This document shows, piece by piece, positions 9,822 through 54,988 of a stretch of 64,000 bases of DNA. Under the pieces are notes generated by a model. The model made no database searches and was not told the DNA's origin. It saw nothing but the letters and a program-made list of their open reading frames with translations. Source of the DNA: Hydrurus foetidus (Eukaryota). How positions within the stretch are numbered: position 1 is the stretch's first letter; the number at the start of each line of letters is the position of its first letter. The stretch is from assembly GCA_900617105.1 (NCBI GenBank), contig UYFQ01000001.1, forward strand, positions 1,302,001 to 1,366,000, in the 5' to 3' direction. Both the position numbers and the translations under genes were made by a program.

Positions 9822-11013
9822 GTACATTGACACGAAAATAACGGAACATTATTACACTACGAATGTTGCCATTCGGCATAACGAGGAGTGGTCATGCGTC
9901 AGACGGAGCTGAACTTGAGCGAGGAGGATCGCTCGACGATCGAAGCCATTCGCAGCAAAGGGGTGCATCAGGCGCGCGAGGTCAATCGAGCACATGTGCT
10001 GTCATGCCTGGACCGCGACATTCCCGAATCTCAGATCATGGCAGTGCTTGGCATTGGCCGCACCGCCGTGTGGCGTGCTCGCGCCGCCTACTTGCAAGGC
10101 GGGCTGGAGTTGGCCGTGTTCGATGTGGAGCGCTCTGGACGCCCGCGCCAATACGACACCAACGCCGAGGCGCGCGTGATCGCGTTGGCCTGCTCAGCCC
10201 CGCCCAAGGGACACCAGCGCTGGACCCTGGTCGAGCTCGAACGCGCTTCTCGTCAAGAGCCTGGCATGCAATCCGTGAGCCGGGAAACCGTGCGACGCAT
10301 ACTCAAAAAAACGATCTCAAGCCCTGGCGCCGGGTAATGTGGTGCATTGGGACGCTGACCGAGGAGTACCGTGCCCGGATGTATGCCCTGCTCGAACTGT
10401 ACGCGCGGCCAATATCCAAAGCAGAACCAGTCATTTGCATAGACGAGAAAAGCCTGCAACTCATCGCCCACAGCCGAGCGCCATTGGCCATGGTGGCGAA
10501 CAGCCCAACCAAGCAGGACTACGAGTACGTGCGCAATGGCACCACCAATCTGTTTGTGGCTGTCGAGCCCAAGGCTGGACGGCGAATCGTATCTGTCACC
10601 GAGCGTCGAGGAAAGGTTGACTTCGTCGCCTTCATCAAAGAACTGCTCACTGGCGCATATGCCAAAGCACAACGAATTCACCTGGTGCTCGACAACCTGA
10701 ACACTCACTTTAGAAAGTGCTTTGACGATGTGCTGGGCAGTCGTGCGGCCGCCACGCTCCTGCGTCGGGTGGAGTTTCACTACACCCCAAAGCACGCGAG
10801 CTGGCTGAACATGGCAGAGATCGAGATTGGCGTCCTGAGTCGCCAATGCCTGGACCGGCGCATTGCCAATCGTGAATTACTGGCCTCCGAGGTTGCGGCC
10901 TGGCAGCAAGCCCGAAACGAGGAAGAACGAACCATCGAATGGAGCTTTACCCGCCAGGATGCGGATCGAAAACTAGGGCATCATTATGTTTCTAAACTTG
11001 CGTGTTGATGTAC
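9822..11013 (+). mobile_element. IS630-family insertion sequence, apparently complete
   Basis: Imperfect terminal IRs GTACATTGACACG / CGTGTTGATGTAC, TA on both sides (9820-21, 11014-15), IS630 transposase inside. Confidence 0.92.
9894..11008 (+). CDS. IS630 transposase, two ORFs joined by a -1 frameshift at A7C (10305-10312)
   Basis: ORF A carries HTH; ORF B has CIDEKS, VLDNLNTH and TPKHASWLNMAEIE (DDE motifs). Confidence 0.9.
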
Positions 11014-11089
11014 TAGGGCGGTTTTTTTACGCCCAAAACGTCAAACAGTCAGGGGTATAGAACCCCATTCAAGCGTGGTGACATACGCG

Positions 11090-11637
11090 CGTTGGATTAC
11101 GCTTGACGAAGCTAAAAAACTGATAACCGAAGTCTCAAAATTGCGGTACGCCCCCACCCTCCCAGCTTCATCAAACTGACGCTGTCCACAAGATGCCGAA
11201 AAAGCGAACTGCTCAAACTCAAGTGGACGGCCATTGACTGGACGCGAAAAATCCTCAACCTTGAAGGCCCTGAAACGAAATCAGGAAAGCGGCGAGCTAT
11301 ACCTCTGAACACCCAAGCAATCGAAGCCCTGCGCACCATGCACGCTTGGGTAAATCGACGTGTGCCGAGTGCTGAATGGGTGTTCGCCATGGAAAACGCC
11401 ACCAGATTGACAACCTTGCAAAAAGGTTTCTCGGCGGCGTGCAGGCGGCTAAAAATTGAGAATTTCCGGATTCATGACCTGCGCCACACTTTTGCAAGTT
11501 GGCTCGTCATGGCTGGGGAAAATTTGTATGTGGTCAAGGAACTGCTAGGACACAGCTCCATTACGGTCACTGAGCGTTATGCACACTTGGCACCAAGCCA
11601 AACACGAAACGCTGTAGAAAAAATGCAATCTTTTTGA
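11090..11637 (+). pseudogene. Tyrosine integrase pseudogene (catalytic domain only, frameshifted)
   Basis: RWITLDEAKKL.../...STRCRKSELLKLKW...TKSGKRRAIPL...RIHDLRHTFASWL...LLGHSSITVTERYAHL; frameshift near 11150; ends 16 bp from the tRNA 3' end. Confidence 0.85.
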
Positions 11638-39001: not shown

Positions 39002-39037
39002 GCGCAATGGGCTGCTGTGCAGCACCCTGTGATGGTT

Positions 39038-39082
39038 TAAGAGAGTGTTTACGAGCCCTGAAGAAGCAACGCAAGGAATGTT
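39038..39082. repeat. 45-bp repeat, copy 1 (copy 2 at 50755-50799)
   Basis: TAAGAGAGTGTTTACGAgCCcTGAAGAAGCAAcGCAAGGAATGTT; 3 mismatches to copy 2. Confidence 0.85.
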
Positions 39083-39148
39083 CAGTGTGTATCACGTTAT
39101 ATGGCACTAGCATCTAATGCGCGCCCCGTTCCACTGTAGGTGCCGTCA

Positions 39149-39928
39149 ATGATGCATATCCCTCGATTCAATACACCCGGCCAATACCACGATGCGTGGG
39201 CGGAGATCCTGCTTTTCGCGCCAGACCAGTTCACGTCGTTTGACGATCGACCCGTCGATCAACGAGCTGAACTTGAGCGTGCGTTCAAAGACCTACGCGA
39301 AGGATTTCACTACGCGGAGAAGCGCGTAAAGGAAGTAAGGCTACGCCGCATCTGTCGAGAAATGATCGAAATGTCTTACGAAGCGTATGTTGCGGGCGAC
39401 CCAAAGCTAGGAACTCACACGTTGCAAGAATGCGAGGGTCTCATTTGGCCGAGTCGGCAGCTGCGCATCAAGCACGCTGTGGAGGCCGAACGACGAGCTT
39501 TCGGTGCTGTGGAGCATTTTGCAAATGTGGAGATTTCACCCTATCCCTACGAAGGCTCCCGCAGCGACTTGGGGCTGGTTCAGGAAAAGTTGCTGGAGCA
39601 CGTTCAGCGAGCTTGCGAACCCAAGCTGTCTCAGACAGAAGGGTTTATGTTGGTCTGGGTAGTGAACGAAGACGGGTCAGTCGCCGACGTTAAGTTGCCT
39701 TCGCAGAAGAAGACGCGCGAGTTCATTCGGGAAGGCGCGCGAGTTGGGCGGTTTATCGGTACTGCGTCGGCGCAACTACTGCCGGGGGGTGGTTTGCTCG
39801 TTTACCACCTTGAGGAGCCTGGCAAGCCGTTCGTGTCTGTGATGAACCTGCGGAGAGAAGGTGTGTTTGAGTCGCCCAGATTCCACCTAAATGAGCCGGT
39901 TACGTTTGCGGCTGCGGCCGCTGTTTAG
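39149..39928 (+). CDS. Hypothetical protein (cassette A)
   Basis: About 259-aa ORF filling the cassette; codon usage differs from the backbone. Confidence 0.8.
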   Translation: MMHIPRFNTPGQYHDAWAEILLFAPDQFTSFDDRPVDQRAELERAFKDLREGFHYAEKRVKEVRLRRICREMIEMSYEAYVAGDPKLGTHTLQECEGLIWPSRQLRIKHAVEAERRAFGAVEHFANVEISPYPYEGSRSDLGLVQEKLLEHVQRACEPKLSQTEGFMLVWVVNEDGSVADVKLPSQKKTREFIREGARVGRFIGTASAQLLPGGGLLVYHLEEPGKPFVSVMNLRREGVFESPRFHLNEPVTFAAAAAV

Positions 39929-39963
39929 GTTGGCTGGCGTACTTTCATGAATCGAGAACAGCC

Positions 39964-40017
39964 ATATAACGAGTAAGGTTAGATCGCGCTTGCCGCGATC
40001 TGAACCGTTTGTTGGAC
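39964..40017 (-). other. attC-like site belonging to element 1 (read on the minus strand)
   Basis: GTCCAAC AAACG GTTCAGAT CGCG-GCAAG-CGCG ATCTAAC CTTACTC GTTATAT: R'', 5-nt spacer, L'' with an extra C, L', R'. Confidence 0.8.
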
Positions 40018-40253
40018 GAGCCCGGTTTGAGGCGACACGGGCTGCCCCTGCAAATATCTTCTGGATGTCTTTATCTGAGCCGCGTGTCGACGCACACGCG
40101 GTCTATGTTTCAGGCACTCAAGTCAAGTGCAGTGTGCCGTTGCAGCACACTTTTTCGTCGGGTATCGCGCTTCTCAGGCATTTTTGACCGAACGGCTTCA
40201 CGCCCGCAGTCTCTGGTTCTGCGATGCTGATACTGCTGTGTGGATGCTGTGCC

Positions 40254-41414
40254 TTACTGGTTCTGGGTGACCTCAGCTTGCACCACAGGCGGCTCGTCGA
40301 TGGGCGGCAGAATGCGCCGCCGCACCACCACCATGGCCGCACCACAGCAAGAACACAACCACGGCGCTCGCACTTTGGCATCCTTCTGCGTCAGGTCTGC
40401 TTGACTGTCATGGGGCCGCTTGAACACCAGCAACTGAAGCAGCGCCCTTAACCGCCGACTGTTGGAGTGCAGAAAGCCAAAGTTGCGTGCCCTGCGAAAC
40501 CCTCTGGGCAGCACATGCTGCAACACCCGTTGCAAGAACTGCGCACCGCTTACCGTGGTGGTGTTCATCTTCTGGGTCTTGCTATCGCGCCATTGGTAAG
40601 TGACTTGGCCGTTCTCGCAACGCAAGATATCCTTCTCCTGAATCACGCCACGGTACAGATAGCGACCCAGGTAAACCAGCGCCTTCTCCCCATTGCCAAC
40701 ACCCTTGCAATCGACCACCCACTCATCGGGCAGTGTTGTGGGCAGCGTCAAGCCCGCTTGCACCAAGGCCGCCAGGAACTTGCCTCGAAACACTGTGGCC
40801 ATGGCTTTGTGGTTGAACAGATAGCCGCCAGCTTTGCTTTTGCTTTTGCCTTTGCTTTTGTGCCCGCCGTTGCTCTTGCCGCGCAAACTGCGCCACAAAC
40901 CTTCTTTACTGTCCAGTGCCGCAGCGGGCATGACCATGTGCACGTGGGGATGAAACGCCAGTTGGCGCGAATGCGTGTGCAGCACAGCCACTGCGCCGGG
41001 GGTTCCCCGCAGCTGTTTGTGGTTCTGGCTGAACGTGCGCAGCGTCTGCCAGGCACAGTCCACCAAGGCGCTGTAGACAAGACGCTGGTGCTGCCAGGCC
41101 AGCGCTCTGAGTTCAGCAGGCAGGGTAAACGTGACAAGGAAGTAATTGCCAGGCACCAGCCTGTGGGTTTGGCGTTCTGTCCAGGCTTGGCTCTCATGAT
41201 GTTGGCAGTGTGGGCACAAGCGGTGTCCGCAAGAATGGGGCACCAAGCGCTGCGCACCGCAGTCGCCACACTGGGCAAGCATCTGAGCTGCCAAGTGGGT
41301 GCGGCAACGCTTCATGGCGTTCAGAGCTTGGCGCTGGGCTTGCCGTGCACACAGCGGATACTGCGCCAAGTAGTCCGCTTCAAAGCGCTGGATGATGGCG
41401 CCGAGCGTGATCAT
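40254..41414 (-). CDS. IS91-family HUH (Y2) transposase/replication initiator
   Basis: Zn-binding CGDC...[26 protein letters not shown] (YxxxY), C-terminal CSCC. Confidence 0.92.
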
Positions 41415-42342
41415 GTGACACCGCCCCAGCTCACGCTAAAGCGCATCATCAAGGTTTCTATCTTCGCGCTGGCTTGGGTGTGGGTGCCGTGCGTGAGGTG
41501 GGTGTAACGGGTGGTGGTGAGGATGCTGTGGTGGCCCAGAATCTTTTGTACCTCCAGCAAATCGACCCCGGCTTCGATCAGGTGCGTGGCATAGCTGTGG
41601 CGCAGGCTGTGCGGGGTGATCTTTTTTTTAGGCCGCAGGCGACACAGACGTGATGCAAAGTCTTTTGCACGCCACCCCTGTCCAGCGGTGTGCGTGCTTG
41701 GCAGGCCCCGGCCAAGCCGCCCAGGCGGTTGGGGAAGAGGAGTTCGGGGTTGCGGTGGGTTTGCCAGAACCTGCGCAAGACTTCCAGCGTAGTCTGTGGC
41801 AAGGGCACGAATCGGTCGCGATTGCCTTTGGAGTCGCGAATAAGCACACGGTGGCGCACAGCGTCAATATCCCCGACTCTCAGCGCCAAACCTTCGCTCA
41901 GGCGCAAGCCCATGCTGTAAAGCGTGAAGTAGAACACCTTGTAGCTCAAGCACCGGGTGGCAGCAAACAAAGCTTGTGCTTCTTCGACGGTGACGATATC
42001 GGGCAGGCGTGAGACTTTGGGGGGCTTGATGAACTGGGGCATAGCCCAGGGCTTGCCCAGCACATGCAGGGTATAGAACTTGAAGCCGTACAGGTCGAGT
42101 TTGACGGCACTCCAGGAGTGGGAGGTGACGCGCTGGTGGAAGTAGTCGGTGAGCTGGTCTGGCGTCAAGTTGTCGATTTGCCAATCAAAGTGCTCACCCA
42201 TCGTACGAATGGCTCTGGCGTAGGCGTCAATGGTTTTGGGTTGTAGGCCTTTGAGCTTGAGGTGCTTGCACAGGGCGCGGTACTTGCTGGAAAAGGGCTC
42301 AGGAAAGGCAGCAGGGTCAAAGCCGCCGGGGTGGGTGGACAT
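41411..42342 (-). CDS. Tyrosine recombinase split by a -1 frameshift at A8G (41622-41629)
   Basis: YSMGLRLSE and KGNRDR in frame 0; [14 protein letters not shown]...[15 protein letters not shown] in the -1 frame; stop overlaps the transposase ATG (ATGA). Confidence 0.9.
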
Positions 42343-42452
42343 GGGCAATCTCCGGTTCAGTTGCGGTCAGCATGCTGCACAATTGCCGCATGTGCCTACA
42401 GCTTACGAATTCCCGGTCTGCGCACCCCCTCCGCGTAGCGGCTTCGTCCAAC

Positions 42453-42544
42453 ATGTCAGTCAACACGGACGCCTTGCGGCCTTTGGCGGCTTTGCCGCCT
42501 TTGCCGCCTTCGTTCGCAAGTCGCCGGTTACCTTCACGTTAAAT
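42453..42544 (+). other. Right part of the cassette A attC
   Basis: ATGTC AGTCAACA CGGAC...CTTGCG...CGCAAG...CCG GTTACC TTCAC GTTAAAT, imperfect palindrome. Confidence 0.8.
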
Positions 42545-42547
42545 GAC

Positions 42548-42772
42548 ATGAAACGACGGTCCCGCTCAGGTACAGCAGACCACGCCGACGAAGCGTCAAA
42601 GATGTCGCGGGCGGAGTTCGACTCCGAAATTCAACGGTGTTTGTGGGGCGCAGAAAATGGCGGTTCGTCCCAAGGACGTAAGTCTTTTTTCAAGCGGCTG
42701 GTTTGGCTAGAACAGCAACGCGAAGAGCTGTTTGAAGTAGTTGCCCCAAGGCGGGAGTTTAGGGAGCGATAG
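42548..42772 (+). CDS. Small hypothetical protein (cassette B)
   Basis: 74-aa ORF starting 10 nt after the core GTTAAATGAC; inverse core GTCACTTAAC follows the stop. Confidence 0.7.
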   Translation: MKRRSRSGTADHADEASKMSRAEFDSEIQRCLWGAENGGSSQGRKSFFKRLVWLEQQREELFEVVAPRREFRER

Positions 42773-42782
42773 GCCTGCTGTC

Positions 42783-42884
42783 ACTTAACAGGTTCGTCGA
42801 TTGGACCCACAACGGCGGGACGCGCTTCTGCCATTCTTTACCAGTAAGTGCGTCGTTGCGGTTCACTAACGGCCGACGTTGAAC
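42783..42884 (+). other. attC site of cassette B (degenerate)
   Basis: ACTTAAC AGGTT CGTCGATT GGACCCACAACGGCG...GCGTCGTTGCGGTTC ACTAACG GCCGAC GTTGAAC. Confidence 0.7.
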
Positions 42885-42945
42885 AAAACCGCTGACGCGG
42901 TGGTGGTCTGCACAAACTGCCACCGCGTCAGCGGTTTAGTTCAAC
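42878..42945. repeat. Long inverted repeat starting at the last cassette core site
   Basis: GTTGAACAAAACCGCTGACGCGGTGG ... CCACCGCGTCAGCGGTTTAGTTCAAC. Confidence 0.8.
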
Positions 42946-43022
42946 TGATGTCGCTGGCGTGTTTCTTTCTCATACCCATAGTTTTAGGGGGAATTCAGGG
43001 TCAGGCGGATCGCAAACACGTT

Positions 43023-43352
43023 CTAAGGCGCGATGGATTTGGAAAAAATATTCAAAACTGCCACGCCTGACACGATGAGCGTGAGGCCAATCACGGCGGC
43101 CACGTCCAGCTTTTGCCCCAAAACGAGCCAGCCGATCAAGGCAATCAGTGCCGTACCCACGCCTGACCAAATGGCATAGGCCACACCTACCGGCACGGTA
43201 CGTATCACCTCGGACAGACAGTAAAAAGCAAGGCCATAACCTGACACGACAGCCACAGAAGGCCAGAAACGGGTGAAACCGTCGGCCGCTTTGAGGGCGG
43301 AGGTTCCGATGACTTCAGAGATGATCGCGATCGCGAGGTAGAGCCAGTGCAT
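43023..43352 (-). CDS. SMR (EmrE/Qac-like) efflux transporter
   Basis: WLYLAIAIISEVIGTSALK, PVGVAYAIWSGVG; four TM segments. Confidence 0.92.
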   Translation of the reverse strand: MHWLYLAIAIISEVIGTSALKAADGFTRFWPSVAVVSGYGLAFYCLSEVIRTVPVGVAYAIWSGVGTALIALIGWLVLGQKLDVAAVIGLTLIVSGVAVLNIFSKSIAP

Positions 43353-43368
43353 GGCTCAGTTTACCAAC

Positions 43369-43671
43369 TCAATCCGCAAACAAGCGGTACATCGCATCCA
43401 CCGACTCATGCCCATACCCCACCGACCCCACGGGTACAGCACCATCTACAGCGGCCAGCACCGCAGCCGTGCCAATCGGACCAAAACCGCCACACAGTTC
43501 AATCAGCTGAACACCCTCAGCAACCAAACTGCAGGCCACTTGCGCACCTTGGGCAGGTGTCGATACGCCGACAGCAATCATTTCAAATTGAGGAGAAGCC
43601 ATGACGCTGCGGTGCTCTGCAGGGTCTAAGCCAGTGCCAGTCACGATAAATCCAAAACGGGTCAATGCCAT
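43369..43671 (-). CDS. Small conserved protein (DUF6506-like)
   Basis: GVQLIELCGGFGP motif; probably co-transcribed with the SMR gene. Confidence 0.65.
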   Translation of the reverse strand: MALTRFGFIVTGTGLDPAEHRSVMASPQFEMIAVGVSTPAQGAQVACSLVAEGVQLIELCGGFGPIGTAAVLAAVDGAVPVGSVGYGHESVDAMYRLFAD

Positions 43672-43785
43672 AGTAAGTTCCTTTGAAAGTCAGGTTGAAA
43701 ACCCCCATCATCGGGACACAATCTATGTCCGTCTACGTCTTTTATGGTCATGAATGAGACCCAAAAGGTCTTAACTTAAAACCCT

Positions 43786-44679
43786 ATGCTTGACCTCCAG
43801 CAACTGAACTGCTTCGTCGCCGTCGCGCAAACCCAAAGCATTGCGCGGGCCGCTGAGCGTTTGCATATTTCGCAGTCCCCCCTCAGCCGACAAATCATCG
43901 CGCTGGAAGAACGCCTGGGTTTGCAGCTCTTTGCCCGCAGCGGCAAGCGCTTGAAACTCAACACAGCAGGGCAACGCTTGCTCGTGGAGGCCACATCGCT
44001 GCTGGCGCAAGCCACCCGCCTGGAACGCTCACTGCGGGATGAGGCCAGCGGCGAAGCCGGGGTATTGTCCGTGGGCTATGTCGAAAGCGCGGTTCACGCG
44101 GGCGTACTTCCCACGGCCTTGCAGGCGCTGAAACGGCTGCGCCCCCAGGTGCGCGTGCAGCTGCACAACCTGAGGTCAAGCGCCCAAATCATGGCACTTC
44201 ACAAGGGCGAGCTGGACATGGCTTTCACCCACAGTCGGCCCTCCGACAGCGATGGCATGACTTACCGTCGCGTCGTGCATGAACCGTTCTTGCTGGCCAT
44301 CCCATCCGAGCACCCATTGGCCTGCACCGGACAAACTACGTCAATCACAGCCAAGCAACTCGATGCCCAACCCTTTGTGTTTGTGCCGCAAGCAGCGTCC
44401 CCAGCAGGCCACGCCGCGCTACTCAAGGCTTGCCGCCAAGCTGGGTTTGACCCCGATATTCACCACGAAGCAGCCGAACCCTCCGTCGTTCTGGGCTTGG
44501 TCGCCGCCGGTTTGGGCTTGGCGATTGTTCAATCAGGGCTGCGGCAGATGGCACCGTCAAGCGTCTGTCTGCGGCCTTTGCCCGAGGGGTTTACGCTCAT
44601 GTTGGAGGTCTACGCTGTGCTGCCTGTGCAAGCCTGCGCATCAGCCAAGGCCTTGTTGGATTTACTTCCCGTTTTATGA
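43786..44679 (+). CDS. LysR-family regulator
   Basis: SIARAAERLHISQSPLSRQIIALEERLG; divergent from the SMR operon. Confidence 0.93.
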   Translation: MLDLQQLNCFVAVAQTQSIARAAERLHISQSPLSRQIIALEERLGLQLFARSGKRLKLNTAGQRLLVEATSLLAQATRLERSLRDEASGEAGVLSVGYVESAVHAGVLPTALQALKRLRPQVRVQLHNLRSSAQIMALHKGELDMAFTHSRPSDSDGMTYRRVVHEPFLLAIPSEHPLACTGQTTSITAKQLDAQPFVFVPQAASPAGHAALLKACRQAGFDPDIHHEAAEPSVVLGLVAAGLGLAIVQSGLRQMAPSSVCLRPLPEGFTLMLEVYAVLPVQACASAKALLDLLPVL

Positions 44680-44805
44680 CTGTGTGGGGAGCAAAAGCCA
44701 TCCTACTCATACTTTGTGTGCCCTACACGACACCATTTTCAATTTATACCAAGCATTTGCTTTTCATAAAGAATATACTCCCCCGTCACCACCCCGGAGC
44801 CGTCC

Positions 44806-46026
44806 ATGCCCTCAGCGCTTGCCCCTGCCCTGCCGCCCGCCACTGCCGCGATGATGGAGCGCATTCGGGTTCAGCTCGCTACGGGGCAAGCAGACTGGCA
44901 GGCCTGCACCGATGCGGAAGCCAAAATTCCCGCCAGCAACTACTTTGACCCCGCCATGTGGCAGGCGGAACATCAGCATTTGTTCCGCGCCCTGCCCTTG
45001 ATCGCGGCACACAGCAGTGAATTGGCCCCTGGTCAGGTGTTGGCGCATGACAGTTACGGCGTGCCCTTGCTGCTCACGCGGGACAGTGAGGGGCAGGTAC
45101 GGTGCTTTTTGAACGTCTGCCGTCACCGGGGGATGCGCTTGGAAGGGTCTTGTGCCGCAGCGCCGCAAGCCGCTCGCAGCTGCACCGGTGTGGTCTGCCC
45201 GTACCACGGCTGGGCTTACAAGTTGGATGGCAGTTTGCGGCACATGAGGCAGGCGCAAGCGTTTGACGATTGCCCGTCCGTCGAGCGTGATTTGGTGGCC
45301 TTGCCTTGTGCTGAGCGGCATGGGTTGATATGGGTTATTCCGCATCAACCGCATGCAGGTACGGCGATGACAGCTATCAATTTAGATGCGTTTCTAGGGG
45401 GCTTGAATGACGAATTGCCGTTTCTGGAGATCGCCGGGCTGCGCCACTTTCGCACCATCGAGGCCGAGTACCCCGCCAATTGGAAGCTCATCATGGATGC
45501 GTTTTTGGAGCCGTACCACATCCGCATGCTGCACAAAGAGACGATTTACCCCTTCTTCACCGACGGCATCACCGCAGGTGCGCAGTTTGGCCAGCATATC
45601 TGCTCACTGGTAGCACGCCGCCCGGCTCAAGAATGGGCTGACACACCAAGCAGTGCAGTCCCCTTGAACCTGGATGCACTGCGCCGCTTGGTCACACCTT
45701 CCCACACCATCTTCCCCAACACGGTGACGATTTTTCACCCCGACTACCTGAGCCTGATTACCGTCTACCCCACCAGCGCCGAGACCCTGCGCTGGACGCA
45801 CAAGATGCTGATCCCCGCCGATAAAGCCTCATCAGACTGGACTTCGCATTGGGAAAAGACCTTCAAATTGATCGAAAAAGGCGTGTTCCAGGCCGAGGAC
45901 ATCCACTGCGCGGTGGAAACGCAAAAGGGCCTGAAAACCGGGGCCAACACCGCTTTGTCGATAGGCCGCATCGAGCAAGGCGTGGCGTGGTTCCATGCGC
46001 AGGTCAAACAGGCTATTCACGGTTAA
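44806..46026 (+). CDS. Rieske aromatic ring-hydroxylating oxygenase alpha-subunit-like protein
   Basis: NVCRHRG...CPYHGW Rieske motif; NWKLIMDAFLEPYHIRMLH. Confidence 0.9.
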   Translation: MPSALAPALPPATAAMMERIRVQLATGQADWQACTDAEAKIPASNYFDPAMWQAEHQHLFRALPLIAAHSSELAPGQVLAHDSYGVPLLLTRDSEGQVRCFLNVCRHRGMRLEGSCAAAPQAARSCTGVVCPYHGWAYKLDGSLRHMRQAQAFDDCPSVERDLVALPCAERHGLIWVIPHQPHAGTAMTAINLDAFLGGLNDELPFLEIAGLRHFRTIEAEYPANWKLIMDAFLEPYHIRMLHKETIYPFFTDGITAGAQFGQHICSLVARRPAQEWADTPSSAVPLNLDALRRLVTPSHTIFPNTVTIFHPDYLSLITVYPTSAETLRWTHKMLIPADKASSDWTSHWEKTFKLIEKGVFQAEDIHCAVETQKGLKTGANTALSIGRIEQGVAWFHAQVKQAIHG

Positions 46027-46123
46027 AAAAGGCGACAAACCGCCCCGTTGCGCACCTTTCGCACCTGATATGAACCCGATAAACTGCCGTCAGCCCCACC
46101 CTATTCCCACGAAAGAGTCCCTC

Positions 46124-46312
46124 ATGATTGCAGAACAAGAACAAGTCGCACGACGCGCTACTGTGCAAAACGCACTGGCCAGCCAACGCATGGAGGGCTT
46201 GGAGCCAGAACGCCAGGTGCTGGAAGATGCCCAAAAGTGGATACGCGGTGAAAAGAGCATCAGTCAGGCCATTGCCGAATTCAAAGCCAGACTTCAACGC
46301 ACACCGGCATGA
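46124..46312 (+). CDS. VbhA-family Fic antitoxin
   Basis: 62 aa with inhibitory motif SQRMEG; ATGA overlap with the Fic gene. Confidence 0.8.
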   Translation: MIAEQEQVARRATVQNALASQRMEGLEPERQVLEDAQKWIRGEKSISQAIAEFKARLQRTPA

Positions 46313-46899
46313 AATACGCAGGTGACCGGGGCGACCCCTATCTGGACAAAGACACCGGGGTCTTACGGAATTTACTGGGCATCACCCATCAATCAGCCTT
46401 AGATGAAGCGGAATCCAGTTTGTCTTTTTTGCGCACCAGCGAATTACGTGAGCAGCCGGTACTTGGTAATTTCGACCTGTCGCACTTGCAAGCCATTCAC
46501 CAGCGACTTTTTTGCGATGTGTATGACTGGGCAGGGCAACTTCGATCCGTCGAAATTCAGAAGGGCAGTACTGACTTTGCCCGGCATCTGGTAATCGAAA
46601 GCGCAGCCAGACAATTGTTTGGGCAACTTGCCAAGGAACAACATTTGTGCGGTCTTGATGCTGCACAGTTTAGCCAGCGAGCCGGGTATTACTTGGGCGA
46701 AATCAACGTGCTGCATCCTTTTCGAGAAGGTAACGGTCGGACTCAGCGTGAATTCATTGCACAACTTGCCCTGCAAGCAGGGTATTCGATGGATTGGGGT
46801 GACATCAGTCAAGCGGAAATGATTCATGCGTCCATTGCGGCCTACAACAGCGATGCCGCAGCCTTGGCCCGGTTGATTCGGCGGGCGCTTGTGCCTTAA
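46309..46899 (+). CDS. Fic-domain (class I) AMPylating toxin
   Basis: Canonical HPFREGNGRTQR. Confidence 0.92.
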   Translation: MKYAGDRGDPYLDKDTGVLRNLLGITHQSALDEAESSLSFLRTSELREQPVLGNFDLSHLQAIHQRLFCDVYDWAGQLRSVEIQKGSTDFARHLVIESAARQLFGQLAKEQHLCGLDAAQFSQRAGYYLGEINVLHPFREGNGRTQREFIAQLALQAGYSMDWGDISQAEMIHASIAAYNSDAAALARLIRRALVP

Positions 46900-47084
46900 G
46901 TGCTGAATGGTCTCCAATGTCTATCTGAAAAAATGGAATATGTCCCACAGCCTGTGGAACATATTCCATCAAGCAAGTCAAAAATAACACCAAATAGGCC
47001 ACCAGAACATACAAATACTGCGTAGGCAGCTATCATTTTTCACTGTCAAATTTACCCCACCCAACCCACTCCAAGGAGATCCCG

Positions 47085-48290
47085 ATGACCGAAGCCTATG
47101 TGTACGACGCCATCCGCACCCCACGCGGTAAAGGCAAAAAAGACGGCAGCCTGCACGAAGTCAAGCCCGTGAACCTGCTGGCTGGCGTGCTGACCGAATT
47201 GCAGCGCCGCAACGACTTTGATACCGCGCAGGTGGACGATATCGTCATGGGTGTGGTGTCCCCAGTCGGCGAACAAGGCTCGGTGATTGCCAAGGTGGCG
47301 GCGCTCAAGGCGGGCTGGGATTTCACCTGCTCAGGCGTGCAAATCAACCGCTTTTGCGCCTCGGGCCTGGAAGCGGTCAACATGGCAGCGCAAAAAGTGC
47401 GCTCAGGCTGGGAGGATTTGGTCGTTGCCGGTGGCGTGGAAAGCATGAGCCGCGTGCCGATTGGCTCCGATGGTGGGGCCTGGGCACAAGACCCAGAAAC
47501 CAACTCCGCCACGCTGTTTGTGCCCCAGGGCATTGGTGCCGATTTGATCGCCACCATCGAAGGTTTCAGCCGTGCCGACGTGGATGCGTTCGCGCTGGAA
47601 TCGCAAAAACGGGCCACCGCTGCCCGTGCTGCCGGTTACTTTGACCGCTCCATCGTGCCGGTGAAAGACTTCCTGGGCCAAACGATTTTGGCGCAAGACG
47701 AGTTCATCAAACCGGGCACCACGCTGGAAGGCTTGGGTGGCTTGAAGCCCGCTTTCGAGCAACTCGGCGCGATGGGCTTCAACCAAGTCGCGCTGAACCG
47801 CTACCCGCAGGTTGAGCGCATCCACCACGTTCACCACGCCGGTAATTCGTCGGGCATTGTGGACGGTGCCGCCGCTGTGCTGATCGGCTCTGAGGCTGCG
47901 GGCAAAACCCACGGCTTCACGCCGCGTGCCCGCATCGTGTCGGTGGCACTCAGCGGTGCCGACCCCACCATCATGCTGACCGGCCCCATGCCTGCGGCCC
48001 GCAAAGCACTGGCCAAAGCGGGGCTGACGATGGATCAAATCGACTTGGTGGAAATCAACGAAGCCTTCGCCGCCGTCGCCATGCGCTTCATGAAGGAAAT
48101 GCGCGTGCCGCACGAGAAAGTCAACGTGAACGGCGGCGCGATCGCGATGGGCCACCCGCTGGGGGCCACCGGCGCGATGATTTTGAACACGGTGATTGAC
48201 GAGCTGCACCGGCGCGGTCTGCGCTACGGCATGGCCACGCTGTGCGTGGGCGGTGGCATGGGTATCGCCACGATCGTTGAACGCATTTAA
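47085..48290 (+). CDS. Acetyl-CoA C-acyltransferase (thiolase)
   Basis: [27 protein letters not shown]. Confidence 0.95.
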
Positions 48291-48329
48291 TTGGAATCTG
48301 ACCCCCATTAAAGAATTGGGATTACACCT

Positions 48330-50483
48330 ATGAAAACCATCCAATACGCCTTTGATAACGGCATCGCCACCCTCACTTTTGATGAGCCCGGCTCGCCCGT
48401 CAACACCATGTGCCGCCAGTGGCAAGAAGACCTCACCAACGTCACAGCGCAGGTTCTGTCTGATAAGTCTGCTATCAAAGGCATAGTATTAGCGTCCAAC
48501 AAGACCACCTTTTTTGCCGGTGCCGACCTGAAAGGCACGATGCGCTTGCAAGCTGCGAACGCATCGGACGTGTTCAAAGAGATTGAACAAACCAAAAAGA
48601 ACTTTCGCACCCTGGAAACCCTGGGCGTGCCCGTCGTATCGTGCATCAACGGCGCAGCGTTGGGCGGTGGCTGGGAAGTCGCGCTGGTAGGCCACCACCG
48701 CATCGCCATTGACGACAAAAAAATCCAGCTCGGCCTGCCTGAAATCACCCTCGGGCTGATGCCTGGTGCCACGGGCGTCACCAAAATGACGCGGCTGTTG
48801 GGCCTGATGGCGGCGCAACCGTACATCCTGGAAAGCAAACTCTTTACACCCGCAGAGGGCCACGCCCTGGGCTTGATCCACGCACTGGTCGCCCCTGGCG
48901 CCAACGCCGCCGCCGAAATGCGCGAAAAGGCGCTGGCCTGGATAGCGGCCAACCCCAGCTCACAGCAACCGTGGGACGACAAAGCCTACAAAATGCCAGG
49001 CGGCACGCCCAGCAACCCCAAAATCGCCGGTGCCTTGGTCGTCGCCCCCGCGATGCTCAAAAAAACCTCGCGTGGCCTGTACCCTGCCCCTGAAGCCGCC
49101 TTGGCGGCCATGGTGGAAGGCGCGATGGTGGACTACGACACCGCCACCCGCATTGAAAGCCGCTACCTCGCCCGCCTGATCGTCAGCCCGGTGGCGAAGA
49201 ACATGATCAACACGTTCTTTTTCAACATGAACGCGATCAAGTCTGGCCAAAGTCGTCCCAAAGACGTGCCCCGTTTCAAACCCAGCAAAGTCGGCCTGCT
49301 GGGCGCGGGCATGATGGGTGCAGGCATCGCCTACGCGCAAGCCAGCCGGGGCATCGCCACCGTGTTGAAAGACGTGGCCCTGGACAAGGCCGAAAACGGC
49401 AAAGCCTACAGCCAAAAACTCACGCAAGCCCGCGTGGACAAAGGCCGCATGACGGCAGAGGCCCAAGCCAAGCTGCTCGCCTGCATCACCCCGACGGAAA
49501 GCTACGACGATCTGCAAGACTGCGACCTCATCATCGAAGCCGTGTTCGAGCAGCGTGATTTGAAAGCCAAAGTCACCCAAGCCGCAGAACCCAAGCTCAA
49601 AGCCGGTGGCTTTTTCGCCAGCAACACCTCCACCCTGCCCATCAGCGGCCTTTCCGCAGCCAGCGCCAAGCCCGAGAAATTCATCGGCATCCACTTCTTC
49701 AGCCCCGTGGACAAGATGAAGCTGGTGGAGATCATTCGCGGCAAGCAAACAGACGATGAAACCGTCGCCCGCGCTTTTGACTACGTGCAGGCTCTTGGCA
49801 AAATCCCTATCGTGGTGAACGACTCACGCGGCTTTTACACCAGCCGCACCTTCGGCACCTTCGTGATGGAGGGTGCCGCCATGCTGGCCGAGGGCATCCC
49901 CGCCCCGGTGATCGAAAACGCCGGCATCCAGTGCGGCATGCCCGTAGGCCCGCTGGCCGTGCTGGACGAAACGGCACTCTCCCTGAGCGTCCATGTGATG
50001 GAACAAACCCGCGCGGACATGGCGGCTGAGGGCAAGCCTTACGAAGTAACCCCTGGCCAGTTGCTGGTAGAGCGCATGGTGAAAGAACTCAAGCGCCCCG
50101 GCCGTGCGGGCGGTGGTGGCTTCTACGACTACCCGGTGGGCCAAAAGAAAGCCCTCTGGACGGGACTCAAAACCACGTTCGAACGTGCAGATGTGGCCTA
50201 CGACATGACCGACATCAAAGACCGCCTGCTCTACCGCCAAGCCGTGGAAACCGCCCGCTGCCTGTCTGAAAACGTGCTGACCACGGTGCATGACGCGAAC
50301 ATCGGCTCCATCTTCGGCATCGGCTTCCCAGCCTGGACAGGTGGCGCGATGCAGTTCATCTACGGCACAGGTGTGGATGCGTTTATTGAGCGTGCAGGGC
50401 AACTGGCGGCGAAGTTTGGCGATGGGTTTGCGTTGACGGATGCGGTGAAGGCCAGCATTCGGCAGCATCAGCCGGTGTATTAA
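48330..50483 (+). CDS. Enoyl-CoA hydratase/3-hydroxyacyl-CoA dehydrogenase (FadB/FadJ-like)
   Basis: ALGGGWE, GLPE, GAGMMGAGIA, SNTSTLPI, HFFSPV. Confidence 0.93.
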   Translation: MKTIQYAFDNGIATLTFDEPGSPVNTMCRQWQEDLTNVTAQVLSDKSAIKGIVLASNKTTFFAGADLKGTMRLQAANASDVFKEIEQTKKNFRTLETLGVPVVSCINGAALGGGWEVALVGHHRIAIDDKKIQLGLPEITLGLMPGATGVTKMTRLLGLMAAQPYILESKLFTPAEGHALGLIHALVAPGANAAAEMREKALAWIAANPSSQQPWDDKAYKMPGGTPSNPKIAGALVVAPAMLKKTSRGLYPAPEAALAAMVEGAMVDYDTATRIESRYLARLIVSPVAKNMINTFFFNMNAIKSGQSRPKDVPRFKPSKVGLLGAGMMGAGIAYAQASRGIATVLKDVALDKAENGKAYSQKLTQARVDKGRMTAEAQAKLLACITPTESYDDLQDCDLIIEAVFEQRDLKAKVTQAAEPKLKAGGFFASNTSTLPISGLSAASAKPEKFIGIHFFSPVDKMKLVEIIRGKQTDDETVARAFDYVQALGKIPIVVNDSRGFYTSRTFGTFVMEGAAMLAEGIPAPVIENAGIQCGMPVGPLAVLDETALSLSVHVMEQTRADMAAEGKPYEVTPGQLLVERMVKELKRPGRAGGGGFYDYPVGQKKALWTGLKTTFERADVAYDMTDIKDRLLYRQAVETARCLSENVLTTVHDANIGSIFGIGFPAWTGGAMQFIYGTGVDAFIERAGQLAAKFGDGFALTDAVKASIRQHQPVY

Positions 50484-50548
50484 GTCTGCGAAATTAGCTT
50501 TCAGTGCACATCACATCTGCGCTGAAAGCTATCAATTTAATTGCAAAA

Positions 50549-50737
50549 TCAACCTTTGTTAGCTTCCATTGCAAACCGCAGTAGCGCGGCACTGCTGTCC
50601 AGGTTGAAGCGCTGACGGATATTGGCCCGGTGCGCGTCTACGGTACGAAAGTCGATTCCCAAACTGCGGGCAACTTCTTTGCTGGTCAAGCCCTGGGCAA
50701 TCAGGGCCAGCACCTCGGTTTCGCGAGCGGTCAGCAT
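50549..50737 (-). CDS. Stand-alone or truncated LuxR-type HTH protein
   Basis: LTARETEVLALIAQGLTSKEVARSLGIDFRTVDAHRANI; the upstream sequence runs into the 45-bp repeat. Confidence 0.75.
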   Translation of the reverse strand: MLTARETEVLALIAQGLTSKEVARSLGIDFRTVDAHRANIRQRFNLDSSAALLRFAMEANKG

Positions 50738-50754
50738 GGGCTGCTGCGACGCAC

Positions 50755-50799
50755 TAAGAGAGTGTTTACGATCCTTGAAGAAGCAAAGCAAGGAATGTT
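50755..50799. repeat. 45-bp repeat, copy 2
   Basis: TAAGAGAGTGTTTACGAtCCtTGAAGAAGCAAaGCAAGGAATGTT. Confidence 0.85.
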
Positions 50800-50903
50800 A
50801 AATAGGCCAGTGCAAAACCTGACCCTGGCTTTTATGGGCAGTTTTTAGCAAAAAATCCTCCAAGCTGTAGCTTAAGAGGTTTGTCTTTTTCCAGAATGCA
50901 GCT

Positions 50904-51021
50904 GTGAATCAAAAAAGCCTCAATCTCAGGGACACCCAGGCTTCGCGTATGCTTTATTTGGCCGCTCCCGCAGTTGGTCAAGTATCCGAATTGATTGGAG
51001 CAGAGAAGTGCCGGGTTTCAT
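50904..51021 (-). pseudogene. intI: Integron integrase remnant (two N-terminal fragments)
   Basis: 51021-50962 gives MKPGTSLLQSIRILDQLRER and 50951-50904 gives HTRSLGVPEIEAFLIH, like IntI1 ...VLDQLRERIRY... and ...HPATLGSSEVEAFLSWL; divergent from the cassette array. Confidence 0.8.
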
Positions 51022-51034
51022 GGAAAATTTATAA

Positions 51035-51050
51035 CTGTATATTTATCCAG
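51035..51050. promoter_or_regulatory. LexA (SOS) box in the intI promoter
   Basis: CTGTATATTTATCCAG = CTG-N10-CAG, 13 bp upstream of the intI ATG. Confidence 0.85.
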
Positions 51051-51099
51051 CATACGCAATGAATTGCAAGGCTGCAAGCCAGTTTCAGGAGAATTCCAT

Positions 51100-51162
51100 G
51101 TCCAGTTTATCGAGCAACGTCCAGTTTCTAGAGCAGGTTATGCTCTGGACATTACGTTAAGT
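51100..51162 (+). other. attI-like site
   Basis: Direct repeats GTCCAGTTTatcGAGCA (51100) and GTCCAGTTTctaGAGCA (51119), then CTGGAC-ATTAC-G|TTAAGT at the start of the first cassette. Confidence 0.7.
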
Positions 51163-51172
51163 TTTCCTACCT

Positions 51173-51667
51173 ATGAGCGCAGATATCAATCCCGCCGACG
51201 AGGCTGAGCACATCGCAACACTTGTACATCCTGACGAGTACGCGAAGTACGTGAACCAAGTGGCAAGTATTTCGAGCGAGCGAATCCTATTCGTGAAGCG
51301 AAAGGAGTTGGCGATGACGCCTTTCGAACTGCTGCAGTTCGCGACTTCCTCATGCACCTCGGTGCGCTACCAAAAGAAGTTGGCGGTGATCCCTATGCTC
51401 ACAGGAGCCTTCTTCATAGGGCTGGTTGTTTTCATTCTTACCTCCGAAGTTGCCCCTGGAACAAGGGTGCCGGTTGGAGCGCTGGCGATACTCCTAGTCT
51501 TCGGAGCAATACTCTTCCTAGGACCTCGGCGCCATCAGCTCACGTTCGAAGTGGACGGCAAGACTTTGAAGTGGAAGAGTAAGGCCGGCGACTTCAAGTA
51601 CAAAGTGGTCAGCTCCCAAAAGGTCGTTGAGTGGGCGCGGGCGAAGGGAATTCTCCGTGAAGGCTAA
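51173..51667 (+). CDS. Hypothetical 2-TM membrane protein (cassette C)
   Basis: 164-aa ORF between core GTTAAGTTT and inverse core AAACTTAAC. Confidence 0.8.
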   Translation: MSADINPADEAEHIATLVHPDEYAKYVNQVASISSERILFVKRKELAMTPFELLQFATSSCTSVRYQKKLAVIPMLTGAFFIGLVVFILTSEVAPGTRVPVGALAILLVFGAILFLGPRRHQLTFEVDGKTLKWKSKAGDFKYKVVSSQKVVEWARAKGILREG

Positions 51668-51675
51668 GGACGGAA

Positions 51676-51733
51676 ACTTAACAGGTTGCTCCATCGGATC
51701 GCCTTCGGCTCCCGCTGAGCGCCAACGTTAGGC
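51676..51733 (+). other. attC site (58 bp, intact)
   Basis: ACTTAAC AGGTT GCTCCATC GGATCGCCTTCGGCTCCC GCTGAGC GCCAAC GTTAGGC. Confidence 0.9.
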
Positions 51734-51750
51734 CTTCAACGGAACCGCAT

Positions 51751-52452
51751 ATGCATATTCAGGGAAATGTGACGAAAATCGGAGCCTTTGATCTAGCCGC
51801 CCATGTGATGGACATTTCCGCAGATCAAGAGTATCGATACGTTATTGAGGTCACCGCCGATAAGCGTGAACGGGTTGGTCAGTACTTCCCGACACATGAG
51901 CTAAGGAAGGTCTTGCCGGCTGACTTGCCCAACGATTTTTATCTCTCAATTGAAAGCATTGATTCCCAGCGCACTCAATTCAGGAACCTTCGGTACTTGA
52001 CGCTGACCAAGAAGCCAAGACACAACAGATTGTGTGCCCTTATAAGCTTTGAGCACTGGGATTGGCACCTTCCCGAAAACTTGCACCACTTCGCAGAGCG
52101 ATTTGTTATGGACGCTCAAACAGAGCGCTGACCTTCAATTGACGCCACCTTTGATCGCGAAGATGTCGGTGTCTCTGTGTTCGCCACCGTCTCGGCTCCG
52201 TCAAACCAGGATCTTTACGCAACGTTTCTGCAACTAGCGGCCAGCACCCTTGGTGCACACCGGGCAACGCTTGCGCAAGGCTACAGCACACCATCCGAAT
52301 CAGCACCGAGGGAACCGACTGAGGTAAAGTCGTCGCCTCAGATTAGCGACTCGCATGGACCCCGTTGGTGGATCCGCTATGTAGTTGTTCCAATATTGGG
52401 TAGTGGCACGGTTGCGGCCGTAATTGCCGGGATGTTGGGGCTTCTGAAATGA
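51751..52452 (+). pseudogene. Cassette D gene with one in-frame TGA (52129-52131) and a C-terminal TM helix
   Basis: ORFs 51751-52131 and 52177-52452 share one frame, separated only by the TGA; cassette runs from GTTAGGC to GCCTAAC. Confidence 0.7.
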
Positions 52453-52500
52453 GTCAGCCGGGAAGCCAAATCAAGTGCAAAACCGTGCCTTCGCGCCTCA

Positions 52501-52554
52501 GCCTAACGAATAAGGTTAGATCGTGCTTGCCACGATCTGAACCGGCTGTTGGAC
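52501..52554 (-). other. attC-like site belonging to element 2 (read on the minus strand)
   Basis: GTCCAAC AGCCG GTTCAGAT CGTG-GCAAG-CACG ATCTAAC CTTATTC GTTAGGC. Confidence 0.8.
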
Positions 52555-52770
52555 GAGCCCGGTTTTGGGCGACGCTTCTCGCCCACTGCAAATATCTTTT
52601 TGAAGTCCCCGGTGGAATGTGTGTTTGCGTAGCGCCTGCGTGATGGCGACTACGTAGAGGGTGGCGTTGCGGCACCTGAGATCAAGCAAAGCAAGGTGCT
52701 GTTGCTGTTTTTGGCCGAGCGCTGACACAGCACCAACTGGGCACTGCCGGGGCCGATGATGCTTTGAGAA

Positions 52771-53880
52771 TTACTGGCTCGTGCAGGCCTCACTTGGTGC
52801 GCTTGGCGGCGCTTTTGGGGGTGTCGTGATGCGCCGCCGAATGACGGTCATCGCGCCGCCACAACAGGCGCATGTCCATTGTGCTCGAGGTGTTGCGTTT
52901 GCTGGCGCTGCGTTTGCCCGCTTGAACACCAGCAACTTCAGCAGTGCAATCAGCCGCTTGCTGTTGGGGTGCAGGAAGCCAAAGTTACGCGCTCGCCTGA
53001 AGCCTTTGGGCAAGACGTGCTGTAACACCAGCCGCAAAAACTCTGCGCCGCTGACGGTGCGTGTGGCCATCTTCTGGGTCTTGCTGTCCCGCCAGCGGTA
53101 CGTCACGGTTTTTTCGTCGCAACGCAGGATGTCTTTCTCCTGAATCACCCCTCGGTACAAGTAGCGCCCCAGATAGACCAAGGCCTTCTTGCCATCGCCC
53201 ACCCCCTTGCAATCGACCACCCAGTCTTTGGGCAAGTTGTTTGGAATACTCAAACCTTGATCGCGCAAAGCCGACAAGAACTTGCCGCGAAACACTTTGG
53301 CCAAGGCCTCGTGATTAAACAAATAGCCCTTGCCTTTGCTACTGCGGCGCAAGCTGCGCCACAGACCCTTGTCGGCATCCAGCGCTGCCCCTGGCATGAC
53401 CATGTGCACATGGGGATGGAATTCCAATTGCCGCGAATGCGTGTGCAGCACGGCCACGGCACCAGGCGTGCCTTGCAACTGTCGGTGGTTCTGGCTGAAC
53501 GTGCGTAGCGTCTGCCAGGCGCAATCCATCAAGGCGGTGTAGACGACACGTTGGTGCTGCCACGCCAGCGCTCTCAGTTCTGCGGGCAAAGTGAACGTGA
53601 TCAGAAAGTAGTTGCCCGGCACCAGCGCTTTAGTTTGTCGCTCTGTCCAAGCTTGGCTCTCATGGTGCTGGCAGTGCGGACAATTGCGGTGACCGCACGA
53701 ATGCGGCACGACACGTTGTTCGCCACAGTCACCACACTGGGCCAGCATGCACGGGGCCAAGGCGGTGCGGCAGCGCCGCATGGCGTTGAGCGCTTGGCGT
53801 TGTGGGTGAGCGGCGCACCGGGGGTATTGGCTGAGGTAGTCCGCGCCAAAGCGCTCGATGAGATGGACAAGCGGGATCAT
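52771..53880 (-). CDS. IS91-family HUH (Y2) transposase/replication initiator
   Basis: [24 protein letters not shown]-terminal CACC. Confidence 0.92.
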
Positions 53881-54808
53881 TTGACACCCGCCCAATCGAG
53901 ATGGAAGCGGCCCATCAGGGTTTCGATCTTCGTGCTGGCTTGCGTGTGGGTGCCGTGCGTCAGGTGGGTGTAACGGGTGGTGGTGAGGATGCTGTGGTGG
54001 CCCAGAATCTTCTGCACTTCCAGCAGATCTACCCCGGCTTCGATCAGGTGCGTGGCATAGCTGTGGCGCAGGCTGTGCGGAGTGATCTTTTTTTTAGGCC
54101 GCAATCCAGCGTGACTTGATGCAGCGTCTTTTGCACGCCGCCTCGGTCTAGGGGCGTGCGTGCCGCATGCGCCCCCGCCAGGCCGCCCAAGCGGTTGGGG
54201 AACAGCAACTCAGGGTTGCGGTGGGTTTGCCAAAAGCGACGCAGCACATCCAGGGTCATGACGGGCAGTGGCACGAAGCGGTCGCGGTTGCCTTTGGAGT
54301 CGCGTATGTGCACGCGCTGGCGTACCGCATCAATGTCACTGACCTTCAAGGCCAGGCCTTCGCTCAGGCGCAGGCCCATGCTGTAAACGGTGAAGTAGAA
54401 CACCCGGTAGCTCAAGACCCGCGTGGCCATGAACAGGGTTTGCGCTTCTTCGACGGTGACGATGTCGGGCAGGCGCTGCACCTTGGGCGGTTTGATGAAG
54501 TTGGGCATGGCCCAGGGTTTGCCCAGCACGTGCAGGGTGTAGAACTTGAAGCCATAGAGGTCAAGCTTGACGGCGCTCCACGAGTGGGAGGCGATCAGGT
54601 CGCTGAAGTAATCGGTGAGTTGTGCGGGGGTCAACACATCAAGCCGGAAATCAAAGTAGTCGCCCATGCGCCGGATGGCACGGGCATAGGCGTCAATGGT
54701 TTTGGGTTGCAGGCCTTTGAGCTTGAGGTGCTGCAAGTGGGTGCGGTACGCGCTGGAAAAGGGTTCAGGAAAGGCAACGGGGTCAAAGCCGCCGGGATGG
54801 GTGGACAT
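53877..54808 (-). CDS. Tyrosine recombinase split by a -1 frameshift at A8G (54088-54095)
   Basis: YSMGLRLSE in frame 0; [11 protein letters not shown]...LGHH...TRYTHL in the -1 frame. Confidence 0.9.
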
Positions 54809-54928
54809 GGGCAAACTCCAGTGAAGTTGAAGGTCAACATGCCTCACAATTGCGGCATGCGCCTACAGCTTACGAATTCACCGATGGCCCTCGCGCCGCT
54901 CCCGCTCCGCGTAGCGGCTTCGTCCAAC

Positions 54929-54988
54929 TGTAGGTTCAACGCGGACAAAAATGCTACGCATTTTTGCCGGTTAACCTGGGCGTTCTAC
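54929..54988 (+). other. Right part of the cassette D attC
   Basis: TGTAG GTTCAAC GCGGA CAAAAATGC-TAC-GCATTTTTG CCG GTTAAC CTGGGC GTTCTAC. Confidence 0.85.

Follow-up and report, generated by a model that had tools for sequence, protein, structure and literature searches.

The window analysed here is a stretch of 64,000 nucleotides from an assembly of Hydrurus foetidus (GCA_900617105.1, contig UYFQ01000001.1), in which two mobile elements, each coding for a tyrosine recombinase (YR) together with an HUH/Y2 transposase of the IS91 type, interrupt integron-type attC sites. Both lie where the initial annotation had placed them, with the same gene content and junctions, and the coupling of the two enzymes that it proposed is confirmed by PF00589, PF13495, PF04986, PF14319 and NF033538. 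The elements and their ends are:

39971-42452, minus strand: element 1, YR plus Y2/HUH (2482 bp)
42431-42452, minus strand: conserved 5' end of element 1 with a short palindrome (terIS side)
39968-40017, minus strand: attC-like end hairpin of element 1 (oriIS side), closed by the shared GTT
52508-54928, minus strand: element 2, YR plus Y2/HUH (2421 bp)
54907-54928, minus strand: conserved 5' end of element 2
52505-52554, minus strand: attC-like end hairpin of element 2

In alignment the two are 77.8% identical over 2055 nt and 83% over the first 100 nt, and neither has a further copy within the window. Each is preceded by a host AAC (39968-39970 for element 1, 52505-52507 for element 2) and closed by a terminal AAC (42450-42452 and 54926-54928), and no target duplication beyond this shared triplet was found at either element, in agreement with the initial annotation. 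Read on the minus strand they have the cassette-like build also claimed for them, ending in an attC-like site of their own. By the rule used here for calling attC, which scores six L-box pairs in the attC register, this end shows the R and L boxes together with one extrahelical base (an extra C), scores 6/6 for the L box and has an L'-R' spacer one base longer than usual.

Both elements sit directly after the AAC of an R'' box, and their removal restores an attC site, as had been proposed. The interrupted sites are:

39964-39970, plus strand: R'' box of host attC1, left of element 1
42453-42544, plus strand: remainder of host attC1 (L'', stem, L', R')
52501-52507, plus strand: R'' box of host attC2
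54929-54988, plus strand: remainder of host attC2

When rejoined, the flanks fold far better than shuffled sequences (z of -3.9/-5.5 and -5.5/-4.5 on the two strands) and carry boxes R'', L'', L' and R' along with the extra C, with L-box scores of 5.5 and 6 of 6; the R' tail of attC2 is imperfect (GTTCTAC).

The source runs contain additional copies: depth relative to the flanks is about 5x for element 2 and about 2x for element 1, the other copies share the same end bases, and a second copy of element 1 elsewhere in these runs terminates exactly at 42452. Contigs of runs X1 and X2 link positions 40025 and 42133 at single-copy depth; another place in the genome probably holds a copy that is divergent or has an internal deletion. 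The joints listed for the assembled contigs include none of a circle or an excision, a weak test, as contigs drop rare forms. The one RNA run compared gave no reads.

The insertion habit extends to relatives. A 22-base motif of the 5' end, common to the window elements and to plasmid relatives 40% identical to them, was used as a probe and gave 123 genome loci, a sample of an estimated ~2400 stretches in the genome collection, and eight viral loci; scanning viral contigs at the protein level yielded no locus. The 139 matches supplied 128 non-redundant flanks with a length of 150 nt or more, in which a perfect attC was entered in reverse at R'' in 33 and forward at R' in 3, compared with 0.75% reverse and 0.73% forward at 13,878 other AAC triplets and less than 0.2% in shuffled sequences. 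With multi-copy genomes added, and at a threshold of 5.5 (background 1.9%), the counts become 62 of 179 in reverse, 5 forward and 112 neither. Forward insertion at attI or at the R' of attC (bottom strand), as in cassettes, is thus not the mode of this clade. Reverse entry at R'', seen in roughly a third of the relatives and spread across bacteria, recurs in the family much more often than expected by chance. The ends of multi-copy members are fixed and polar, with subterminal palindromes, and there is no target duplication beyond the shared GTT triplet.

A natural empty allele is available in one case. In Escherichia coli plasmid NZ_LT985243.1 a relative of 2336 bp splits a known attC, that of aadA1, behind the same AAC. 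Taking this relative out gives, letter for letter, the native 165-nt junction that the aadA1 attC has in a Salmonella plasmid; the arrangement was not found in the collection of E. coli genomes. Together with the counts above, this supports the proposed reverse insertion at the R'' of attC. A 254-bp remnant of a hairpin end, 95% like the E. coli element, occurs in a Shewanella plasmid (NC_008573.1; L374:1501-1754). Some members sit at the end hairpin of another element, head to tail in L227-L228 (genome G005), and L086, and probably L034, are inserted backwards at an R''-like box of another element.

Preference for attC is one matter and dependence on it another. By the rule used here 112 of the 179 flanks are not attC and share only a linear motif, so that attC is preferred, not required. 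This motif consists of AAC, A-A, five bases, T, two bases, A and G/C, and recurs at targets outside attC, where A1 is present in 64, A2 in 69, T8 in 63 and A11 in 65 of 113 flanks (background about 27%); the A11-G12 spacing equals that of the element's own junction. These flanks mostly show no extra folding (median z -0.47 vs. -0.61 for background), and some are plainly decayed attC. In five genomes 60 copies were divided among attC (21), other hairpins (8) and plain sites (31). The claim that attC is the target therefore stands as an enrichment and fails as a requirement, and the refuting outcome named in advance, insertion mostly outside attC, is partly realised.

The core triplet at the hairpin end is G-N-T. 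In 40 genomes it was GTT in 100 cases, GAT in 5 and GCT, GGT and GTC in one each, with G first in 108/108, and in the five-genome set GTT in 51 and GAT in 3, with G first in 54/54; the fourth base was A in 25, G in 15, C in 13 and T in one (n = 54). The core is related in form to the CTTG/GTTC-type tetranucleotide target of IS91, and does not have its spectrum.

The two genes of each element are placed as follows:

41623-42342, minus strand: N-terminal frame of the element 1 YR (PF13495, a SAM-like domain; catalytic Arg and Lys)
41622-41629, minus strand: element 1, A8 run with a G after it, likely the site of a programmed -1 slip
41411-41629, minus strand: element 1 YR, C-terminal -1 frame (H-x-x-R, H, Tyr), the stop overlapping the Y2 start
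40254-41414, minus strand: element 1 IS91-type transposase (Zn domain, HUH 155-159, Y248-x3-Y252; PF04986, PF14319; NF033538, 359 bits)
54089-54808, minus strand: element 2 YR, N-terminal frame
54088-54095, minus strand: element 2, A8 run with a G after it, likely the site of a programmed -1 slip
53877-54095, minus strand: element 2 YR, C-terminal -1 frame with catalytic residues
52771-53880, minus strand: element 2 IS91-type transposase (HUH 155-159, Y236-x3-Y240; NF033538, 375 bits)

The HUH/Y2 transposase and Zn domain of the IS91 family are present, and both NF033538 scores exceed the cut-off of 125 bits; no relative of the Y2 protein was found in PDB. There was no match to Rfam, and a promoter scan of element 2 found none.

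Both YR genes of the window stop short in frame, a feature absent from the initial annotation. H-x-x-R, H and the catalytic Tyr lie behind the A8 run in the -1 frame, and the catalytic set R-K-H-R-H-Y is complete across the two frames. Among 36 elements with both halves, 12 have a -1 shift on an A8 or A9 run (two of these being copies from one genome), one has a +1 shift and 23 are in frame, and the A8 arrangement is found in 20/20 copies of genome G005 and 4/4 copies of genome G346. No indel is listed for the A8 run of element 2 in the source-run contigs, at a depth of ~240. The 45 codons after the slip differ between the window copies by 7 synonymous and 0 replacement changes, and the ratio of non-synonymous to synonymous change (pN/pS) behind the slip is 0-0.32 over 21 pairs; the catalytic end of the YR is under purifying selection. 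Sequencing error or decay as the source of the frameshift was rejected on contig depth, recurrence across elements and purifying selection. The run is likely a programmed -1 slip, ribosomal or transcriptional.

The recombinase is related to the integron integrase IntI without being one. It has 5-6 residues where the I2 insert of 10 IntI has 36, and an in-frame relative scores 154 bits against TIGR02249, below the cut-off of 265; against PDB entries, an in-frame YR relative gives equal scores to archaeal XerA and to IntI4. A quick tree was drawn from 31 element YRs together with 10 IntI and 9 XerC/D; in it IntI forms one clade (support 100) within an unresolved fork with the element YRs, apart from Xer, and the element YRs form a single group with a support of 77 only. 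The tree fits a close kinship of element YRs and IntI, which are grouped together apart from XerC/D and differ in the I2 insert and the TIGR02249 score. Lacking I2, the YR would be unable to read extrahelical bases in the manner of IntI. The proposal that a folded host attC strand is recognised is not supported as stated, and the insert that IntI uses on folded attC is missing.

A sister subfamily inserts in the opposite orientation. A variant 5' end, taken from window position 42878, was used to scan metagenomes and gave 120 loci with 109 scorable flanks, of which 20 are forward at the R' of attC, 2 backwards and 87 neither; orientation differs from the main set with Fisher p 3e-13. An intI-like gene lies within 500 bp in 9 of 58 longer flanks, vs. 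2 of 110 in the main set. Y2 is encoded in 33 of the 34 loci with room for it, many members end in a similar hairpin, and their YRs are nearest the deep branches of the YR tree. These members behave like true autonomous cassettes. Since the sister lineage inserts forwards and the main clade backwards, strand choice follows the lineage of the element. In the window itself, positions 42878-42945 form a 68-bp palindrome of two inverted sister-type 5' ends, lying forward at the R' box with which the palindrome meets the attC-like site of 42783-42884; it is possibly a remnant or a miniature derivative, and has no match in viral contigs.

The reading favoured here, by a modest margin over doubt, is that these are self-mobile, IS91-related elements in which the HUH transposase copies out a single-stranded circle and the element's own YR joins the attC-like junction of that circle to a G-N-T core in the host. 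The YR would be made at a low level through the -1 slip, and the circle, the G/TT crossover and the division of labour between the enzymes are inferred. The arm of choice would be the R'' of attC, read on the top strand, and recognition of the host site may take place in double-stranded form, as with attI or attG, and not as a fold. After insertion the end of the element would supply a new R'' to the remaining host attC, so that the element would ride inside the upstream cassette. The G-N-T junctions lean towards the YR over the HUH enzyme as the one that joins the target. In favour of this reading stand the reverse-at-R'' bias, the aadA1 case, the complete catalytic set of the YR with its recurrent slip and selected C-terminal end, the constant first G and variable second base at the hairpin end (as in the GWT genome sites of IntI), the copies that multiplied in G346 with no intI detected, and the strand choice by lineage.

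Several findings weigh against this reading. The YR lacks the I2 insert, the layout is exactly that of IS91, where HUH alone inserts (PMC13181058), 112 of 179 targets are not attC by the rule used here, and a few multi-copy genomes contribute many of the counted sites. The reverse-at-R'' bias could be raised by the survival of insertions in harmless intergenic attC. At the 5' end, a first base other than G occurs three times (L195 and two of ~150 listed), and variants of the second and third base are equally common. Tandem pieces of the hairpin end, each after a GTT, also do not fit a simple G/TT model. Such pieces, 30-60 bp long, stand behind full copies in genome G003 (L177, L179, L183, L184, L187, L192, L197, L199 and L201) and in G005 (L234 and L236), and may reflect abortive copying, imprecise excision followed by reinsertion, or assembly error. 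L195, also from G003, starts with A and not G, and, given a G/TT crossover, the site without the element would read as an extended -10 box of consensus sequence.

The strongest alternative, possible though on balance improbable, is classical rolling-circle transposition by the HUH/Y2 enzyme alone, which would nick at AAC, transfer the strand and pick the target, the element's own attC being the oriIS palindrome and the YR an accessory that serves in excision, resolves tandems or controls termination, standing where IS91 has Orf121. According to PMC13181058, IS91 has its target beside oriIS, a terIS tetranucleotide next to a palindrome, no duplication, a bottom-strand single-stranded circle and an upstream gene overlapping the start of tnpA, and the window elements share this polarity, lack of duplication and gene overlap; NF033538 scores over its cut-off, tandem copies, partial repeats of the ori end, and the absence of I2 point the same way. 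The target speaks against this alternative: in the CTTG/GTTC target of IS91 the first base varies and the second is fixed (PMC13181058), whereas here G is fixed in G-N-T and the motif reaches 12 bases. Moreover, at the donor end the R and L boxes stand, with an extra base, in the attC register, and the sister subfamily sits at attI-like and R' positions like cassettes, which a YR explains more simply.

It is also conceivable, but doubtful, that attC is not recognised as such, and that the element reads a short linear motif alone, which the top strands of attC match by chance, survival at neutral intergenic sites adding to the bias; this is compatible with both readings above. The retention of A1/A2, T8 and A11 at targets outside attC, the lack of extra folding there, the 31 of 60 recent copies at plain sites and the failure of all four G346 targets by the attC rule agree with this. 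Against it, enrichment persists once the motif is given, 31 of 49 used motif-matching sites being attC vs. 22 of 105 unused ones (odds ratio 6.5), on a background already rich in cassette arrays and with survival bias still included, and the motif occurs only seven times per 64 kb of window, and both window copies are in attC.

That the elements are passengers whose attC-like junction host IntI inserts at attC, attI or attG is very improbable: the junctions resemble the GWT of IntI genome insertion sites (bioRxiv 2022.09.11.507474), intI was present in 5/5 of the element-bearing genomes tested first and the forward subfamily neighbours it in 9/58 flanks, but this clade enters attC on the strand that IntI avoids, the bottom strand being recombined orders of magnitude better (PMC5027507), intI is no commoner with the element (16/24 genomes) than without it (17/24), many of these genomes being incomplete, and four identical copies have multiplied in G346, where no intI was detected at E 1e-25 (5.59 of its 5.7 Mb are one contig, with 0.1 Mb outside it). 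These four copies argue against a role of IntI, as the initial annotation had held in crediting the elements' own enzymes, and host IntI is an unlikely mover of this clade; the passenger reading may apply to the forward subfamily.

The gene pair itself is known. IS91-family elements with an upstream YR, such as ISShvi3, have the same pair in the same order, and ISSod25, ISWz1, ISAzo26, ISSde12, ISMno23 and ISCARN110 are further IS91 and YR names in ISfinder. In the available part of bioRxiv 10.1101/542381, IS91-borne YRs fall in an Integron-like subgroup without the insert of IntI, and in that of PMC9229058 no insertion sequence is said to interrupt attC. Neither mentions, in those parts, attC insertion, a register at R'', the motif of the target, the -1 slip or a pair of subfamilies with opposite strand choice, and the accessible text of PMC8876359, PMC5001619 and PMC9345347 has nothing on this targeting. 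It was not found in print, although ISfinder notes, papers on ISSod25 and IS1111-attC and preprint supplements may hold more; the target habit of this IS91 subgroup is apparently undescribed.

Likeness to known systems is divided. With IS91, IS801 and IS1294 the window elements share the HUH/Y2 enzyme, polar palindromic ends, lack of duplication and an upstream gene that runs into the start of tnpA (PMC13181058), but this gene is a YR instead of Orf121, the target is G-N-T with an extended motif instead of CTTG/GTTC, and the ori end is built like attC. Like integron cassettes, they have a 5' GTT, genes, an attC-like end and a G-W-T core; unlike them, they carry their own enzymes and in this clade enter backwards at R''. 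IS1111-attC and group IIC-attC introns also enter attC opposite to cassettes (PMC9229058 and PMC8876359). Their enzymes, an IS110-type recombinase and a reverse transcriptase ribozyme, are unrelated to those of the window elements.

The elements are likely a third kind of mobile element homing to integron sites, and one using its own enzymes. If so, the class would be widespread, as the ~2400 stretches estimated for one end motif indicate, and able to enter a clinical class 1 integron, and it would pair an HUH enzyme with a site-specific recombinase in a unit the size of an insertion sequence. It would also give a handle on the chicken-and-egg problem posed by the I2 domain of IntI and attC sites (PMC4792948), as an I2-less relative of IntI with its own attC-like site and two lineages of opposite strand choice. 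A bolder and rather unlikely idea is that such elements survive today as intermediates on the way to the integron, in which an I2-less IntI relative already recombines an attC-like hairpin that a rolling-circle enzyme has turned into single strand and sister lineages read opposite strands, integrons having arisen when the recombinase settled and the end became a cassette site.

The surroundings of the elements are modest. About 10 kb of ordinary host DNA separates elements 1 and 2, which belong to two cassette clusters, both small and distinct from one another; the search for intI in the window found none. Further sites in these clusters are:

42783-42884, plus strand: next attC-like site of cluster 1, after the open reading frame (ORF) 42548-42772, read directly; imperfect by the rule used here
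51676-51733, plus strand: uninterrupted attC of cluster 2, after ORF 51173-51667 (L score 5/6)

A contig from a biofilm metagenome (run X3) bridges 39023-43027 with 18 other letters in its place, and cluster 1 is therefore a 4-kb island absent from a related strain. Between 51700 and 52260 several indels and changes of single bases set the window apart from contigs of the source runs, and ORFs 51751-52131 and 52177-52452 may for this reason be one gene. Elsewhere, a small multidrug resistance (SMR) gene lies at 43023-43352, a VbhA-Fic toxin-antitoxin pair at 45995-46899, and a DDE_3 transposase adjoining a fragment of a tyrosine recombinase at 9863-11637.

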